From Escherichia coli (GTDB taxonomy: Bacteria > Pseudomonadota > Gammaproteobacteria > Enterobacterales > Enterobacteriaceae): DNA of 64,000 nucleotides. The position numbers and the translations under genes are program-made. The stretch is taken from the NCBI RefSeq assembly GCF_030013205.1, contig NZ_CP122648.1. One strand, written 5' to 3'. A model generated the notes under the pieces. That model worked only from the letters and a program-made list of their open reading frames with translations. It was not told the origin of the DNA and did not search any database. Below are positions 20,688 through 48,277 of the stretch, piece by piece. Position 1 is the first letter of the stretch. Each line of letters starts with the position of its first letter.

Positions 20688-20747
20688 CATAATCCCAATG
20701 ATTACTCCCTGACAGGGTTCGTAGGCCACTCAATATCAGGTGCAGTT

Positions 20748-20867
20748 GATGTATCAACACGGTTCAGCAACACCCGATACTTTTTCCAGGCTTCCAGCAA
20801 TGAGGTTTCTTCCTCCGTTGCGATTTCCAGATCCACAGCATCCTGAAGTGGCGCAATATGCTCACTG
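20748..20867. repeat. Direct repeat copy B (~120 bp)
   Basis: Hand alignment to 19699-19818. Confidence 0.8.
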
Positions 20868-21104
20868 GCTACCCTGGCGACGCGCCTTACGCGTTAACCA
20901 GCCTTCTGCTTCCAGCCGTGCGATAGCCGTTCTGACGGTACTCATCCCCGCGCCAATCTGGCGTGCAATGGTTTCAATTGATGGCCAGCACACACCTTCG
21001 TCATTACTGAAATCAGCCAGGCGGGCCATAATTGCCACGCTGGATAACTTCATGCCTGACGCAGCGCAACCATCCCATACATAGCCGGTTAATTTAGTGC
21101 TCAT
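20862..21104 (-). pseudogene. Phage HTH protein (replication-initiator-like N-terminus), truncated / frameshifted
   Basis: 80-aa ORF with HTH (SIETIARQIGAGMSTVRTAIARLE); the homologous continuation ([20 protein letters not shown]...) is in another frame immediately downstream. Confidence 0.5.
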
Positions 21105-21113
21105 GACCGACCT

Positions 21114-21452
21114 CTATTTCCCTGAATTTACGACGAAACTGTTCGAGCGGGCTGAAGCACTCATGCTCATAGCCTTCGCGGAGGTAGATAACCCGTTGTG
21201 TTTCCGGCTCCCAACGAATGACTCTGACGGGTACTCCGTAGTGATCTTTGAACCAGCGGTTAACTTGTCGCAAAGGACTGTCTCCTTCTGCCGGTTGAAA
21301 TCACCCACAGCCCACTCTGCAAAGCTGTGGGTTACAATTTCCCTGTCACCTGGTACATTCACTGCATAGCAATATTCCACCTTCGCTTTTCCACCCGGTA
21401 CAGGAAGCGCAATCAGTTGCGAGCGACGGTAGTGTGTTGTTAAACTGTTCAT
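21114..21452 (-). CDS. Hypothetical phage protein
   Basis: 112-aa ORF; ATGA overlap with the upstream CII-like gene suggests translational coupling. Confidence 0.4.
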
Positions 21453-22018
21453 GCGTTAGTTTCTCCACAACCAGAAGCAATCGACGCCACGACGCCCGGA
21501 GCTGCACACTCGCGGGCGTCATTACTTTCTGAAATGCAAAAAATTTTGTAGACAAGTGCTGCATGCTCCTGCAGCTTCGAAATTGAGAGATACAGCTCGT
21601 CGTTAATTGCTGTCTTCTCATGCGGTTCCACTACACCGTCTTCGATTGCTGAACGAATCTGTTTTGAATAACTGCCGATCTGTTCAATGACTTCCAGCAG
21701 ACGCTGGTTAATATCGGCGTTGTCCACATCCTCGACGTCAGGAAGAGACACAAAGACGCCATTTGCAGACTGCGCCACAGCATCAGCAATGAAGTGAGTG
21801 CCACCAGCACGCTGTAAAACCATTGCCCATCCCAGCGGGAAAATCTGATCGCCATCTGCACGAAGGCGGTTGAATAAAGCGTTTTCTGTTACATCGAGCC
21901 AGTCAGCCGCTTCAGCGTAACCACCCGGCAACGCCGCGATAGTTTTTCTGACAGCTTTCACGTACCACTCAGGCTGTTTTTCTATTTTCCAGTGATGCTT
22001 ACCCACGATTAGCCTCAT
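21449..22018 (-). CDS. Phage CII-like / YdaT-family regulatory protein (putative)
   Basis: 189-aa ORF directly downstream of the cro-like gene in the rightward early operon; assignment by position and general resemblance. Confidence 0.45.
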
Positions 22019-22049: not shown

Positions 22050-22274
22050 CTAATCTTTCGGATAGATATCCGGTCTTAAGTCAGATTTCGTAATTGCACC
22101 TGACGTGCATTGCTCAAGTTTTTTAGCCAGCACAAAACTGGCTTTTTTATAGCCATTGAAAACCAGCCGTAAGTAGCCAGGTGTTGAGCCAACTTTTCCG
22201 GCCAACTCGCCCTGCTGTTCTTTGGTTAAAGAGTCCCAATACGCTTTCATACAATATGTACCTCCGATGTACAT
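22050..22274 (-). CDS. Cro-like / YdaS-family HTH regulator
   Basis: Small ORF divergent from the cI-like repressor; likely true start at MKAYWDSL (22250); HTH-like GSTPGYLRLVFNG segment. Confidence 0.6.
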   Translation of the reverse strand: MYIGGTYCMKAYWDSLTKEQQGELAGKVGSTPGYLRLVFNGYKKASFVLAKKLEQCTSGAITKSDLRPDIYPKD

Positions 22275-22325
22275 ATCACATGATTAAAATGAACCTTCAA
22301 GATACTTGTACCTTAACGGTACAAG
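22258..22325. promoter_or_regulatory. Divergent cI/cro control region with palindromic operator-like sites
   Basis: Perfect palindrome cttgtacc-ttaac-ggtacaag (22305-22325) and tgtacc...gtaca (22258-22274) between the divergent repressor genes. Confidence 0.6.
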
Positions 22326-22340
22326 GGTTTTAATTTCGTT

Positions 22341-23015
22341 ATGAAAACAATCCATGACATCCGGCGGTCTAACGCCAGAAAACTGAGAGATGGTGTTGGC
22401 GGGAATTCTTCCTTTGCCACTATGATTGATCGCGAGCCAACCCAGACCAGCAGGTTTATGGGAGATGGTGCTACTAAAAATATCGGTGACAGCATGGCAC
22501 GACACATCGAAAAATGTTTCGACCTGCCTGTCGGATGGCTCGATCAAGAACACCAGACAACGAACATCACAAAAAAACCTGATGTTTCAATCACTAATAA
22601 ACAAATCACATTAGTCCCTGTCATATCATGGGTACAGGCCGGAGCATGGAAAGAAGTTGGATATTCTGAGGTTGATTTGAGCACAGCAGAAACGTATCCC
22701 TGCCCTGTACCCTGTGGGGAAATGACTTATATCCTGCGGGTGATAGGTGATTCAATGATTGATGAGTACCGCCCGGGAGACATGATTTTTGTCGATCCTG
22801 AAGTACCTGCCTGCCACGGTGACGACGTTATTGCATTGATGCACGATACAGGTGAAACCACCTTCAAAAGGTTGATAGAAGATGGGACACAGCGTTATCT
22901 CAAAGCGTTAAACCCAAACTGGCCTGAGCCTTACATTAAGATCAACGGTAATTGCTCTATAATTGGAACTGTGATTTTCTCAGGAAAACCAAGAAGATAC
23001 AAAATCAAAGCCTAA
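22341..23015 (+). CDS. CI-like phage repressor with LexA/S24 autopeptidase domain
   Basis: 224-aa ORF; N-terminal HTH region and C-terminal S24 domain (GDSM..., TFKRL). Confidence 0.8.
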   Translation: MKTIHDIRRSNARKLRDGVGGNSSFATMIDREPTQTSRFMGDGATKNIGDSMARHIEKCFDLPVGWLDQEHQTTNITKKPDVSITNKQITLVPVISWVQAGAWKEVGYSEVDLSTAETYPCPVPCGEMTYILRVIGDSMIDEYRPGDMIFVDPEVPACHGDDVIALMHDTGETTFKRLIEDGTQRYLKALNPNWPEPYIKINGNCSIIGTVIFSGKPRRYKIKA

Positions 23016-23027
23016 TCAATGTTTATG

Positions 23028-23052
23028 AACCTGCTTCGGCAGGTTTTTTTAT
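23028..23052 (+). terminator. Rho-independent terminator after the cI-like gene
   Basis: aacctgc-ttcg-gcaggtt stem-loop followed by ttttttt. Confidence 0.7.
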
Positions 23053-23054
23053 AC

Positions 23055-23082
23055 TTGACAATGTACCTTTGAGATACATAAT
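23055..23082 (+). promoter_or_regulatory. Candidate early-left (pL-like) sigma70 promoter overlapping tgtacc operator half-sites
   Basis: TTGACA (23055-23060), 16-bp spacer, CATAAT (23077-23082); two atgtacc motifs resembling the cI/cro operator half-sites. Confidence 0.5.
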
Positions 23083-23192
23083 GTACCCAAGAGAAACAAC
23101 AAACAGGCAGGACCCCCACGAAGTATCCGCCTGGGGCATATGAAGTTCAGGATGATTCGTTAGCAACAAAAAAGCGCCCTACAGGACGCTTA

Positions 23193-23204
23193 GCTCTTTA
23201 ACAA
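23193..23204 (+). promoter_or_regulatory. boxA-like element (GCTCTTTAACAA)
   Basis: 12-nt match to the rrn boxA consensus (TGCTCTTTAACAA) about 110 nt downstream of the candidate pL-like promoter. Confidence 0.35.
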
Positions 23205-23229
23205 TCTGGATATCCACAACAGTAGTAAT

Positions 23230-23721
23230 CTACAGATTGCCGTTAAGTTTTCTGGACAACTCCTCAATGGATGGAGGCGATACGTAATCCGGATTTTTAT
23301 TCATCAGAAACTTATTTTCACAGTGGAGGCACCTGCTTTTATGAAAAAGCTCATCTTCGCTAACCGGGAATGGTTGAAGTATCGATACTATCTTTTGTCC
23401 AAAACATTTTGGGCAAAGATGCATGGTTATGCTGCCACCGTTCACGATTACCTCCTTCGAGTATACAAAAGTACCCGACTCAAGTTGGTTAAGGATATAG
23501 CCTTCCGTCTGAGCCTCAAAGTTTTCGAATTCTGCAATTTTAGCTTTGAGAGAAGCATTTATTTCTTGATAAGAGCCCACCAGTTCAACGAGAGACACGC
23601 ATTCGCGCTGAATAGACGCAAGCTTTGAGTTCAGCTCACCAATAGCCGCATTTACTTCAGCTTGAGTTTTTGCCTCGTTCATTAGTTTTGCAATCTGGGC
23701 TGTTTCACGAATAGCCGTCAT
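23230..23721 (-). CDS. Hypothetical coiled-coil protein with C-terminal CxxC...HC zinc-ribbon-like motif
   Basis: ORF 23230-24009; the N-terminal 96 codons look like non-coding read-through, so the probable start is MTAIRETAQ (23721); C-terminus has CPKCFGQ...CLHCEN; oriented antisense to the predicted early-left transcript. Confidence 0.5.
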   Translation of the reverse strand: MTAIRETAQIAKLMNEAKTQAEVNAAIGELNSKLASIQRECVSLVELVGSYQEINASLKAKIAEFENFEAQTEGYILNQLESGTFVYSKEVIVNGGSITMHLCPKCFGQKIVSILQPFPVSEDELFHKSRCLHCENKFLMNKNPDYVSPPSIEELSRKLNGNL

Positions 23722-24030
23722 TGCTGCCGTTAATTCAGCGATCACATTGAATACTCTTATTGTTGTTGGGGATATCCAGATTAACCGAATCCTTGTTGTT
23801 GGGGAATAACCAGGTCCACCTCGCCTGATGTGGCTAAAAGCAGGCACATAACAGCTAAGTATTTTCAACCAGAGAGAATCCTTAGCGTTGTGGTGAATGC
23901 GGCTCAGCGCACGCGGGTTAAGGTTGAGGCTGACAGTCGACCTTCTGTGGATACCCACCCGCCTGGTGTGCAACCTTCGCCAGGCACCGGGAGGCACCCG
24001 GCACCACAACTTTATGCTGTGTGTAGTCCT

Positions 24031-24166
24031 GGCGGTACCAGCTTGTACCCTTGCTTCCGGCTGGTACCGTCCTTTTTACAAAACAGAGAAGAGCATCACC
24101 GGACGACGGGCTCATAACCCAATCCATCCGGGCGGCGGCCACCACAGGTGTTCTTCTCTGTTTTGT
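24031..24166 (+). other. Structured GC-rich non-coding segment: terminator-like hairpin plus U-run followed by a long imperfect hairpin (candidate regulatory RNA or leader)
   Basis: 12-bp stem 24031-24042/24060-24071 followed by ttttt (24073-24077); 16-bp stem 24078-24093/24151-24166 enclosing a GC-rich apical region; no credible ORF. Confidence 0.4.
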
Positions 24167-24214
24167 GGAGAAACTAATCGGCCTTGCAGGGTCGATATGA
24201 TGAGGAGCAGCAAA

Positions 24215-24577
24215 ATGGCTAGCGAACGCAGTACTGATGTGCAGGCATTTATCGGGGAGCTGGACGGCGGCGTATTTGAAACCAAAATCGGCGCAGTTCT
24301 CAGTGAAGTCGCTTCCGGTGTGATGAACACGAAAACCAAAGGTAAGGTCTCACTCAACCTGGAAATCGAACCATTTGATGAGAACCGTGTGAAAATCAAA
24401 CACAAACTCTCATATATTCGCCCGACTAACCGCGGGAAAATTTCCGAAGAAGACACCACCGAAACGCCGATGTATGTCAATCGCGGTGGTCGCCTGACTA
24501 TTCTGCAGGAAGACCAGGGACAATTACTGACTCTTGCCGGTGAACCTGACGGAAAACTCCGCGCAGCAGGTCGTTAA
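24215..24577 (+). CDS. YfdP-like phage protein
   Basis: 120-aa product from MASERSTDVQ with GAGGAG ribosome-binding site; matches the size and sequence I recall for K-12 CPS-53 YfdP. Confidence 0.7.
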   Translation: MASERSTDVQAFIGELDGGVFETKIGAVLSEVASGVMNTKTKGKVSLNLEIEPFDENRVKIKHKLSYIRPTNRGKISEEDTTETPMYVNRGGRLTILQEDQGQLLTLAGEPDGKLRAAGR

Positions 24578-24642: not shown

Positions 24643-25467
24643 ATGTCTCAGAACTTAGACGCAACCGCAATTAATCAAATCCATGCCCTTATTTCTGCTC
24701 AGGGTGTTAATGAAATTATCAGTAAGATTGGTGCCGATGCTGTGGCATTGCCTGAGAATTTCCGCATTCATGATCTGGAAAAATTTAATTTAAATCGCTT
24801 CCGTTTCCGTGGTGCACTTTCCACTGCCAGCATCGATGATTTTACCCGTTATTCTAAAGATCTTGCAGATGAAGGCACCCGCTGCTTTATCGATGCCGAT
24901 AATATGCGTGCCGTCAGTGTGCTTAACCTGGGTACTATTGATGAGCCAGGTCACGCAGATAACACTGCCACTCTCAAACTGAAAAAGACAGCACCGTTCT
25001 CTGCTCTGTTGTCTGTTAACGGCGAGCGTAACTCCCAGAAGTCACTGGCAGAATGGATCGAAGACTGGGCCGACTACCTTGTGGGCTTTGATGCTAATGG
25101 TGACGCCATTCAAGCAACAAAAGCGGCTGCGGCAGTCCGTAAAATCACGATTGAAGCAAACCAGACCGCTGATTTTGAAGATAATGACTTCAGCGGCAAA
25201 CGCTCCCTGATGGAGTCTGTCGAAGCGAAGACCAAAGACATTATGCCAGTGGCATTTGAATTTAAATGCGTTCCGTTTGAAGGTCTGAAAGAACGTCCGT
25301 TTAAATTACGCCTCAGCATTATCACTGGCGATCGTCCTGTACTGGTTCTGCGCATTATTCAGCTGGAAGCGGTGCAGGAAGAAATGGCTAACGAATTTCG
25401 TGATCTGCTTGTTGAGAAATTCAAAGACAGCAAAGTAGAAACCTTTATTGGTACTTTCACCGCCTGA
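24643..25467 (+). CDS. YfdQ-like phage protein (DUF2303 family)
   Basis: 274-aa ORF, same length as K-12 YfdQ, directly after the yfdP-like gene. Confidence 0.7.
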
Positions 25468-25594
25468 TTTCATTACTGCAAATGCCCCTGCGGGGGCATT
25501 TATGGAAACGTAATTAACTCAATAATCACCGGATGGTGAGGGCTTCCTTTTACCAGAATTCAGCGCGGTGCAGTGCATATACGTGGAGAACAAA

Positions 25595-26656
25595 ATGTCA
25601 TTTATTAAAACTTTTTCCGGGAAGCATTTTTATTATGACAAGATAAATAAAGACGACATCGATATTAACGATATCGCGGTTTCCCTTTCAAATATCTGTC
25701 GCTTTGCCGGTCATCTTTCGCACTTCTACAGCGTCGCCCAACATGCGGTTCTTTGCAGCCAGCTGGTGCCGCAGGAATTTGCTTTTGAAGCGTTAATGCA
25801 TGATGCAACAGAAGCGTATTGCCAGGACATTCCCGCACCACTGAAACGCCTTCTTCCTGACTATAAACGGATGGAAGAAAAAATAGACGCCGTAATCCGT
25901 GAGAAATACGGGTTATCAACTCAGACAAAGGCAAAGCATCTTGCCATGATAAAGGCCATTCTCCGTGCTGCAGAACGCGACTGGAAGTGGCTGGAAAAAG
26001 CGCCTGTCATCAAGATACCAGCGGTCAGAAACAAGCGAGTCAGATGGCTGGAAAAGGAGGAAGCAAAACGCCTTATTGATGAGTGCCCCGAACCACTGAA
26101 ATCTGTCGTCAAGTTTGCGCTGGCAACTGGTCTGAGAAAGTCGAACATCATAAATCTGGAATGGCAACAAATCGACATGCAGCGACGAGTTGCCTGGGTG
26201 AATCCAGAAGAGAGCAAATCAAACCGCGCCATTGGTGTGGCGCTGAACGATACCGCCTGTAAAGTGTTGCGTGATCAAATAGGCAAGCATCACAAATGGG
26301 TGTTTGTACATACCAAGGCGGCTAAGCGAGCAGATGGAACATCAACGCCTGCGGTCAGGAAGATGCGCATCGACAGCAAGACATCATGGCTATCAGCTTG
26401 TCGTCGTGCAGGAATTGAAGATTTCCGTTTCCATGACCTCAGACACACCTGGGCAAGCTGGCTGATCCAGTCAGGCGTCCCATTATCTGTGCTTCAGGAA
26501 ATGGGCGGATGGGAGTCCATAGAAATGGTTCGTAGGTATGCTCACCTTGCGCCTAATCATTTGACAGAGCATGCAAGGAAAATAGACGACATTTTTGGTG
26601 ATAATGTCCCAAATATGTCCCACTGTGGAATTATGGAGGATATAAAGAAGGCGTAA
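25595..26656 (+). CDS. Chimeric ORF: YfdR-like HD-domain N-terminus fused in frame to a tyrosine-integrase catalytic domain (likely inactive integrase remnant)
   Basis: N-terminal ~105 aa [14 protein letters not shown]...[10 protein letters not shown] (HD motif); C-terminal ~240 aa with integrase signature [11 protein letters not shown]...VRRYAHL, ending 16 nt from the tRNA 3' end; the integrase arm/core-binding N-terminus is absent. Confidence 0.7.
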
Positions 26657-26671
26657 CTGATTGAATTGTAA

Positions 26672-26748
26672 TGGCGCGCCCTGCAGGATTCGAACCTGCG
26701 GCCCACGACTTAGAAGGTCGTTGCTCTATCCAACTGAGCTAAGGGCGC
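26672..26748 (-). tRNA. argU: tRNA-Arg (anticodon UCU)
   Basis: 77-nt sequence whose reverse complement is GCGCCCTTAGCTCAGTTGGATAGAGCAACGACCTTCTAAGTCGTGGGCCGCAGGTTCGAATCCTGCAGGGCGCGCCA; cloverleaf and UCU anticodon readable by eye. Confidence 0.93.
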
Positions 26749-48148: not shown

Positions 48149-48277
48149 GTCATACCACTCGCCTGATTATTTTTAGCTATGTTGGATTTTGCCACGGTTT
48201 ATACCGTGGCTTTTTTTGCGGTAAATTCAGGTAAAAAACGGATGCGGGATAAAATGCATCCGCTCTAATGGCAAGAG

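Follow-up and report, generated by a model that had tools for sequence, protein, structure and literature searches.

An early-left leader RNA of composite build was found at positions 23830 to 24214 of a 64,000-nt stretch of Escherichia coli DNA (contig NZ_CP122648.1; here called the window), inside a prophage remnant of the SfV/SfIV/ST64B type. The segment is the untranslated leader of a cI-controlled early-left (PL) operon that begins with yfdP. It joins a pseudoknotted domain related to the STnc100/PasD family to 14 single-stranded nucleotides that match exactly the beginning of the processed form of the host small RNA (sRNA) RprA, an intrinsic terminator, and a long hairpin just before the yfdP ribosome-binding region. 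With about even confidence, we read it as a PL-driven, terminator-ended composite sRNA that acts in trans and also attenuates the operon, followed by a processing hairpin. A preliminary description of the segment had called it a functional structured RNA, whether an sRNA, a processed leader, or a cis-acting antitermination RNA, rather than spacer DNA; covariation, family, position, and terminator bear out the functional RNA, while the antitermination option gained no positive support. Its kinship with STnc100/PasD, the pseudoknot, the RprA seed copy, and the PL-leader setting are features beyond that description.

Fold and family of the leader RNA

Folding of the + strand of the segment gave an energy of -164.9 kcal/mol (z, -7.0), compared with a z of -2.1 for the - strand. 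Because of this strand asymmetry in folding and of the G-U pairs, the RNA is encoded on the + strand, to which the RNA features below belong. The GC richness that had been claimed for the segment is real, with 200-nt windows over 23800-24299 having a GC content of 0.54 to 0.585 versus 0.36 to 0.49 on each side.

The core of the leader is a domain of the STnc100/PasD type (Module A, 23887-24010), a 124-nt pseudoknotted fold of five helices. A 9-bp closing stem, P1 (23887-23895 with 24002-24010), is followed by the junction AAU and by H1 (23899-23914; GCGGC...GCACGC), after which a variable region leads to H3 (23961-23968 with 23978-23985) and to H4 (23987-24001; CCGGG-AGGCA-CCCGG). The pseudoknot pairs AAGGUUG (23920-23926) with CAACCUU (23971-23977) in the H3 loop. 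Both small hairpins of the preliminary description are found here, one as gcctggtg...cgccaggc (23961-23985) and the other as H4 itself.

A covariance-model search, which the preliminary description had proposed as a check, returned Rfam STnc100 (RF02076) over the full model (1-206) at 42.4 bits (E, 2.4e-7), under the gathering score of 47. Sub-threshold matches to the same model (33 to 41 bits) were found at the same place in SfV, ST64B, phiES15, and 118970_sal3 and also in phage P1 and RCS47. Our own covariance model, R1, built on 36 diverse members, scored Module A at 79.8 bits, its scores running from 80 to 85 bits. Weak R1 or BLAST matches elsewhere in the window lie at 25467, 45476, and 46724, the latter two being chance matches inside host open reading frames (ORFs). 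A conserved 21-mer, CACCGGGAGGCACCCGGCACC, was found in more than 120 viral contigs, which yielded 74 distinct cores.

Folding with covariation over homologous phages, the second proposed check, showed that the stems and the pseudoknot covary. Among 36 representatives, 96.9% of cells pair, and the covariation score of P1 and H1 was reached by none of 500 shuffles. H4 is invariant in the 36-member set by construction, the set having been gathered with the 21-mer; the same hairpin reads GGUGG-AGGCA-CCACC in Kp4866-6 and Flotzy and CCUGG-AGGCA-CCAGG in the K-12 Qin prophage, the stem being compensated and the loop the same. The two strands of the pseudoknot are complementary over at least 5 bp in 35 of 38 representatives, which contain 33 distinct duplexes (median shuffle p per sequence, 0.04). 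Variants include AAGGCUG:CAGCCUU in phiES15, UGGUUAU:AUAACCA in phage P1, CAGUUAA:UUAACUG in Qin, and AGACUGACA:UGUCAGUCU in contig L087. Altogether, the helices are kept by compensatory changes across lineages that are only 70 to 77% identical. A recent paper on the STnc100/PasD family used nested RNAalifold structures, and we found no description in the literature of a pseudoknot in this family.

Module A is preceded by a 5' flank (23817-23886) that contains two hairpins, one conserved (GCCUGAUGUGGCUAAAAGCAGGC) and one weak, and a degenerate boxA-like motif, AAUCCUUAGCG, lying against the closing stem; relatives have UGCUCUUU or UGCUCUC at the boxA-like position. SfV, Flotzy, and vB_EcoM-606R2 share this flank. 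Positions 23857-23900 do not fold significantly (z, -0.8).

The preliminary description had found no credible ORF in the segment. ORFs do exist, namely one of 95 amino acids that crosses the segment, one of 226 amino acids that is in frame with yfdP (23897-24577, +), and one of 75 amino acids on the opposite strand (23921-24145, -). The SfIV annotation contains a YfdP extension of the 226-amino-acid type (SfIV_34), and PGAP annotates a pseudo-coding sequence at 23890-24200. However, frames are not kept among homologues. In E. coli phages, the open frame continuous with yfdP differs from the frame open in ST64B, and phiES15 has stops in every frame, including all three + frames. In the Salmonella and Cronobacter homologues (ST64B, phiES15, and sal3), every - frame is interrupted by stops. 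The + strand ORFs matched no PHROG family. The - strand ORF at 23921-24145 matches phrog_3651 (E, 1.3e-49; 162-position profile), but the remainder of that profile is antisense to yfdP and is split in the window by a frameshift (- strand ORFs 23921-24145 and 24112-24480), as is typical of a mis-annotation family. Phrog_3651 was probably built from repeated mis-annotation of near-identical DNA antisense to the leader RNA and yfdP, and the SfIV_34 extension, the PGAP pseudo-coding sequence, and phrog_3651 are likely all RNA mis-annotated as ORFs. The segment is therefore non-coding, although not for want of ORFs. ARAGORN found no tRNA or transfer-messenger RNA in the segment or in the leaders of its relatives.

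The RprA-like seed, the terminator, and the hairpin before yfdP

Between Module A and the terminator lies a single-stranded linker (24011-24030) that contains the RprA-like seed UGCUGUGUGUAGUC at 24015-24028. The seed is unpaired in the minimum-energy fold and matches K-12 RprA at 14 of 14 positions, where the processed 47-nt form begins; by calculation, a given 14-mer would turn up in 128 kb with a probability of about 5e-4. The last 47 nt of RprA constitute a processed species that coexists with the full-length RNA and is active alone (PMC9262595), and RNase E cleavage of RprA has been described (PMC6202311). In all early-left relatives, (A)UUGCUGUGUGUAGUCUU is conserved in the stretch that separates domain from terminator, and the seed is kept in 8 other phage lineages with differing terminators. 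The length shared with RprA is 26 nt in Flotzy, Eeyore, and LLS, continuing in Flotzy into the terminator, and 46 nt in vB_EcoM-606R2. On Flotzy, the Rfam RprA model scored 43.2 bits (E, 0.011).

Phage 606R2 has the window-type 5' flank followed directly by the RprA-like module, without an STnc100-type domain. In phiNP, the flanks and closing stem are kept and a different domain of about 160 nt replaces the STnc100-type core. Because the domain is absent from one of these phages and different in the other between the same flanks, what stays constant in these leaders is the seed with its terminator, the knotted domain being an optional insert that can be exchanged. The PL leaders of phiNP (L137, 1790-2450) and Kp4866-6 (L138, 1100-1290) are 600 to 900 nt long, GC rich, and ORF free, and they contain a perfect T-arm-like GUC(U/C)GGUUCGAUUCCAGAC followed by RCCA; neither leader gave an Rfam or ARAGORN match. 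RprA-3'-like sequences were also seen in many other phages, including lytic Erwinia, Dickeya, and Salmonella phages (for example, Erwinia phage Ea9-2, 22137-22180, and Salmonella phage FSL SP-058, 69939-69968), none of them annotated; the Salmonella/Shigella phage matches cover only the terminator part of the RprA query (25-54). Searches of an incomplete literature collection with the H4 15-mer, a seed 13-mer, and the term "RprA-like" found nothing.

The terminator-like stem-loop with UUUUU that had been reported at 24031-24077 was recovered with a slightly longer stem (24031-24043 with 24059-24071; 13 bp rather than the 12 noted), a 15-nt loop, and a C followed by U5 (24073-24077). The fold of 24013-24080 has an energy of -25.7 kcal/mol (z, -3.6), and a simple terminator scan missed this intrinsic terminator only because its loop exceeds 8 nt. 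Every early-left relative has a terminator here, its sequence varying. The 5' arm of the terminator, UGGCGGUACCAG, resembles that of DicF, an sRNA made from the DicA-repressed operon of Qin by termination and by processing with RNase III and RNase E. The Rfam DicF model scored 15.9 bits on the window (gathering score, 48), and a BLAST search with DicF (0.4 Mb) matched phiNP with an E value of 7e-4 and SfV with one of 0.28, a value that two chance host-gene matches also gave; the window gave no match. A shuffle test of the likeness (0 of 2,000) is inflated by terminator composition. The resemblance to DicF, seen at the level of sequence, may be taken as a lead, and it gains some weight because DicF adjoins the domain in Qin and in contigs L018 and L065 and because P1 has a region resembling dicF in its ban operon. 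The minimum-energy fold did not bear out an alternative closing-stem domain 5' of DicF in Qin, and in an ftsZ duplex test even genuine DicF was not separated from shuffles (p, 0.2).

Directly after the terminator stands Module B (24078-24166; z, -5.7), the long hairpin of the preliminary description, whose arms (24078-24095 and 24149-24166) are 94% complementary and form an 18-nt inverted repeat (I3). The stem, given before as 16 bp, reaches 20 bp (24078-24097 with 24147-24166) and is capped by a three-way junction with a conserved arm 1 (24100-24130), which has an anticodon-loop-like CUCAUAA (24111-24117), and a variable arm 2 (24131-24140). The stem shows compensatory changes, with A-U replacing G-C in ST64B and C-G replacing both A-U and G-C in phiNP and Kp4866-6. 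In Klebsiella phages, the late operons contain relatives of arm 1 right behind tRNA-Asn and tRNA-Arg (L136, 2505-2580; L140, 1505-1580), where they have the loop CUCAUAA and are closed by GGCCUG/CAGGCC followed by ACCA. This Klebsiella element weakly resembles phage tRNA-Ile(CAU) genes (p, ~0.01 to 0.02; ARAGORN makes no call), and the arm 1 element may be a degenerate derivative of tRNA-Ile(CAU). The reading of a "CCACCA" in Module B as a tRNA 3' end was dropped, other E. coli variants having CCACCGC.

In the N leader of phage lambda, an RNase III hairpin separates the leader RNA element from the ribosome-binding site of the first early-left gene. The length of the Module B stem and its place between leader RNA and ribosome-binding site likewise suggest that it is probably an RNase III processing site. 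The yfdP ribosome-binding region follows (24167-24217), with the Shine-Dalgarno sequence GAGGAG at 24202-24207 and the ATG at 24215-24217, so the segment indeed lies immediately upstream of yfdP; the YfdP protein matches phrog_204, and PGAP places the start correspondingly.

Early-left setting and distribution of the element

A near-consensus promoter, TTGACA-16-CATAAT, was found at 23055-23082 (promoter scan, 11/12), past the cI terminator (23027-23046). Operator-like repeats overlie it at 23060-23078 and 23080-23098, and one repeat family, D1/D4/D7 (TGTACC..TACA), is common to this site and the cI-cro intergenic region (22255-22323). Because the operator repeats that overlap it also fill the cI-cro gap, we take 23055-23082 to be PL with its operators. 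The promoter scan revealed no other promoter-like site between PL and yfdP, and a promoter of the RNA's own 5' of 23887 was rejected, neither the scan nor inspection by eye finding a sigma-70-like site. With PL upstream and no other promoter-like site before yfdP, the early-left operon has the segment as its untranslated leader. Homology breakpoints at 23762, 23816, and 24030 show the leader to be a mosaic, and the segment is 100% identical in sequence in inducible phages such as PhiR29_1.

Canonical members of the family, with an H1 of CCCCC...GGGG, are found in late operons, downstream of Q, tRNAs, and stx and ahead of esterase or lysis genes; PasD and STnc100 have been reported in late regions of phages. 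The GCGGC...GCACGC subtype of H1 occurs in repressor-controlled early operons. The domain follows cI in SfV, SfIV, ST64B, 118970_sal3, phiES15, Kp4866-6, Flotzy, and two metagenomic phages, its early-left position being directly after cI plus variable morons, and the genes 3' of it vary among yfdP, kil/gam, and phrog_492 (at least 9 lineages). R1 detected exactly one copy each in SfV and ST64B and no second copy in the early-right or late operon of either. Some viral contigs contain two or three nearby copies (L032, 4032-4378; L018, 6150-6751; L131, 5007-7883), those of L032 being two tandem copies 218 nt apart. The early-right region of ST64B has an isrK (RF01394) match above the gathering score (64.3 bits), located within or beside sb41 (L008, 21-97, -).

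In phage P1, the domain lies in the C1-controlled ban operon directly upstream of tciA. A K-12 copy, unannotated, was found in the dicF-dicB spacer of the Qin prophage (NC_000913.3, 1649449-1649584; L143, 2450-2585), with 68 bits for R1 and 34.4 bits for Rfam STnc100. A linker and an intrinsic terminator come after the domain in nearly all members. The exceptions are the P1 and Qin copies, in which it is an mRNA leader element and not a free-standing sRNA; in Qin, it runs into the dicB ribosome-binding site. In CPS-53 of K-12, the yfdO-yfdP gap contains no leader RNA element.

The remnant itself contains a cII-like gene (21449-22018, -), cro (22050-22274, -), and a LexA-type cI (22341-23015, +; phrog_4). 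Rightward from cI, the order is a - strand accessory gene (23230-23745; phrog_1244), the segment, yfdP, yfdQ, and a fusion ORF of yfdR and integrase (25568-26656; 362 amino acids) beside a tRNA gene (26675-26748, -). The fusion ORF consists of the N-terminal part of YfdR, an HD-domain 5'-deoxynucleotidase, and the C-terminal part of a tyrosine integrase. A deletion appears to have taken out yfdS, yfdT, xis, and the start of int, and the prophage is therefore probably unable to excise. An Rfam IS009 match above the gathering score (20745-20944, -; 133.7 bits) spans the junction of a truncated replication/helix-turn-helix gene (20862-21104) and a C-terminal fragment of a tail-fiber assembly gene. 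These coding remnants at a deletion joint cast doubt on IS009 as an RNA gene here and rule it out as an early-right counterpart of the leader RNA; judging by this joint, the prophage has been reduced to about 6 kb.

The accessory gene is bracketed by 26-nt inverted repeats (23203-23228 and 23757-23782; 85% complementary), whose motif, TTGTTGTTGGGGA(A)TA.CCAG, recurs at 23790, and a partial copy of the 5' edge of the RNA (GAATCCTT..GTTG.GG.GAAT) lies at 23787-23815. The gene resembles an inserted cassette, or its repeats may be protein-binding sites. In apparent host DNA of the window, an Rfam STnc480 match above the gathering score was found at 48155-48221 (-; 84.9 bits).

Proposed mode of action and comparison with known systems

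In the mechanism that we favor, inactivation of cI would allow PL to fire and the leader to be transcribed. The nascent RNA would fold into the pseudoknotted domain, and most transcripts would end at 24077, giving a stable RNA with the single-stranded copy of the processed RprA start exposed. RNase E may trim just 5' of the seed, as in RprA and DicF, and the RNA would act in trans, probably with Hfq, on host targets of the RprA type. The same terminator would attenuate yfdP-yfdQ-yfdR...xis-int, and read-through transcripts would probably be cut by RNase III within Module B, releasing the yfdP mRNA. The scheme follows what experiments have shown for DicF, made in the equivalent operon of Qin by termination and RNase III/RNase E processing, and it agrees with the Hfq dependence of the PasD RNAs. 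PasD1 and PasD2, relatives of the domain family, are northern-validated sRNAs with Hfq-dependent stability and were also covered by RIL-seq (PMC8550237), and STnc_100 has been seen in vesicles by reverse transcription-quantitative PCR.

Several findings weigh against this mechanism. The STnc100 match is below its gathering score. The Rfam RprA model (threshold, 70 bits) gave no match in the window up to an E value of 10, only 14 nt being shared, and a search of the window for targets of the seed matched only the seed itself. PL is about 770 nt upstream, and the transcript crosses the antisense of the - strand accessory gene untranslated, where Rho could stop it. The P1 and Qin domains lack a terminator and run straight into a ribosome-binding site, and the invariant junction and loop bases point to a specific partner for which the scheme makes no provision.

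Some of these findings would suit a cis-acting device in which the domain, perhaps together with its boxA-like flank, binds RNA polymerase or Nus factors and antiterminates like put or the rrn/nut sites, the released RNA being a by-product; we regard this as unlikely, though worth keeping in view. In this long operon, the domain and the terminator right behind it come first, and the sparse annotations revealed no N-like gene. Operons that are long and rich in terminators also contain other members (P1 ban and the Q-dependent late operons), and those of P1 and Qin are plain leaders. The combination of covarying stems with invariant junction and loop bases suggests a protein partner, and relatives have UGCUCUUU-like motifs flush to the closing stem. 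In the window, however, the boxA-like motif is degenerate, and the domain has no likeness to put in sequence or architecture. SfV and ST64B each have a single copy, with no counterpart in the early-right or late operon, unlike putL/putR and nutL/nutR. Moreover, the domain is missing from the otherwise same leader of 606R2 and is replaced by another in phiNP, and the late operons are already antiterminated by Q. Somewhat less likely again is the idea that the domain is a self-contained device on the nascent RNA that binds some host machine (polymerase/Nus, RNase E, or a ligand) and gates the genes behind it, whether dicB, kil, tciA, or yfdP...xis-int; if true, such a gating device would establish a new class among phage leader RNAs, of which K-12 has an unstudied copy between dicF and dicB.

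There is only a small chance that the leader is a graveyard of RNA gene remnants (STnc100-, RprA/DicF-, and tRNA-like) brought together by phage mosaicism, with no function beyond the terminator. The three breakpoints, the swapping or absence of modules among relatives, the degenerate tRNA-Ile(CAU)-like apex of Module B, and the remnant state of the prophage itself are what such a history would leave. Weighing against decay are the compensatory changes that keep every helix at 70 to 77% identity, the invariant loops and 14-nt seed that persist beside diverging flanks, and the identical sequence in inducible phages.

Slimmer still is the likelihood of a riboswitch-like or factor-sensing attenuator, in which the domain would be an aptamer for a metabolite or protein that sets termination at 24077 and couples the early-left genes to physiology. 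Its layout is aptamer-like, in that several helices meet at a junction that is shut by a closing helix and includes a pseudoknot, unpaired bases are invariant, and a terminator comes next; the domain is also widespread, as the distribution of the 21-mer shows. However, inspection by eye, which was not a systematic search, revealed no conserved alternative pairing between domain and terminator; the linkers range from 20 to 70 nt, and the terminators vary. The P1 and Qin members have no terminator to control, relatives behave as Hfq-dependent sRNAs, and no Rfam riboswitch family matched. A protein-coding role, whether as an N-terminal extension of YfdP (23897-24577), a frameshifted gene (23890-24200), or a - strand gene (23921-24145), is scarcely credible despite the ORFs, their annotation in SfIV and by PGAP, and the phrog_3651 match, since the frames are not conserved and the substitutions are compensatory in RNA helices.

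Among known RNAs, the leader element is most readily compared with STnc100/PasD, with which it shares the closing stem, the GGUGAAU junction, H1, H3, and the AGGCA-loop hairpin followed by CACC. In both, a linker leads from the domain to an intrinsic terminator that would end an RNA of about 200 nt (the Rfam alignment covers the terminator), and both belong to temperate phages of enterobacteria. It differs in its score (42.4 versus 47 bits), in its H1 (GCGGC...GCACGC rather than CCCCC...GGGG), and in its place in a cI-proximal early-left leader, shared with at least 8 relatives, whereas canonical members lie in the late region after Q, tRNAs, or stx. In addition, no promoter of its own was detected, and its linker carries an RprA-type seed.

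The likeness to the processed 3' form of RprA consists of the 14 nt with a single-stranded start, followed by a terminator hairpin, and extends to 26 to 46 nt in relatives; the conserved single-stranded AUUGCUGUGUGUAGUCUUU at the start of the processed form is matched at 14 of 14 positions at 24015-24028. In contrast to RprA, however, the element is phage borne, its terminator sequence differs, the Rfam RprA model does not match it, and in the alignment an STnc100-type domain stands in place of the 5' stem-loops and the rpoS/hdeD-pairing region; in this comparison of RNA sequences, no promoter setting of the Rcs type was noted. DicF likewise comes from a repressor-controlled early operon by the immunity region and has a 5' single-stranded seed followed by a terminator arm, UGGCGGUA(U/C)CAG, and in Qin, L018, and L065 a copy of the structured domain comes directly after it. 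The modules stand in the reverse order, however, the seed sequence is different, and the similarity is significant only through phiNP (E, 7e-4), SfV and the window being at noise level.

The put RNA of HK022 occurs in both early operons as a V of two stems, about 73 nt long, and is likewise a structured RNA in the PL leader of a phage without a noticed N-like gene. It binds the beta' zinc-binding domain and suppresses termination with no help from protein factors, and it would serve as the working analogy for a domain acting in cis. It was rejected as a relative after comparison with HK022 putL and putR, whose resemblance is only short and local and whose architecture is different (there is no put family in Rfam); here there is a single copy (SfV and ST64B), with a five-helix pseudoknotted fold and no sequence similarity. 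Module B resembles the hairpin of the lambda N leader in being a long, near-perfect stem before the first early-left ribosome-binding site. It differs in its apex, a conserved three-way junction with relatives beside tRNA genes of Klebsiella phages, and its cleavage is a prediction.

The element is thus related to STnc100/PasD but misses the curated score and the usual context of that family, it carries an RprA seed without being an RprA gene, and its kinship with DicF is uncertain. The pseudoknot, the exchangeable domain, the place in a PL leader, the RprA-seed mimicry, and the unannotated K-12 copy are new in that we did not find them described in the literature, our coverage of which was incomplete. 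They widen the STnc100/PasD family to one with a covarying pseudoknot and make of its domain a movable module of the P1 ban operon, Stx-phage late regions, and PL leaders. If the favored reading is right, many temperate enterobacterial phages (SfV, ST64B, phiES15, and phages of Klebsiella and Citrobacter) would make an RprA-seed RNA as their first early-left product, a mimic of the host envelope stress sRNA RprA that is switched on at induction. The K-12 copy between dicF and dicB, where genetics is easy, makes the role of STnc100-type RNAs directly testable.

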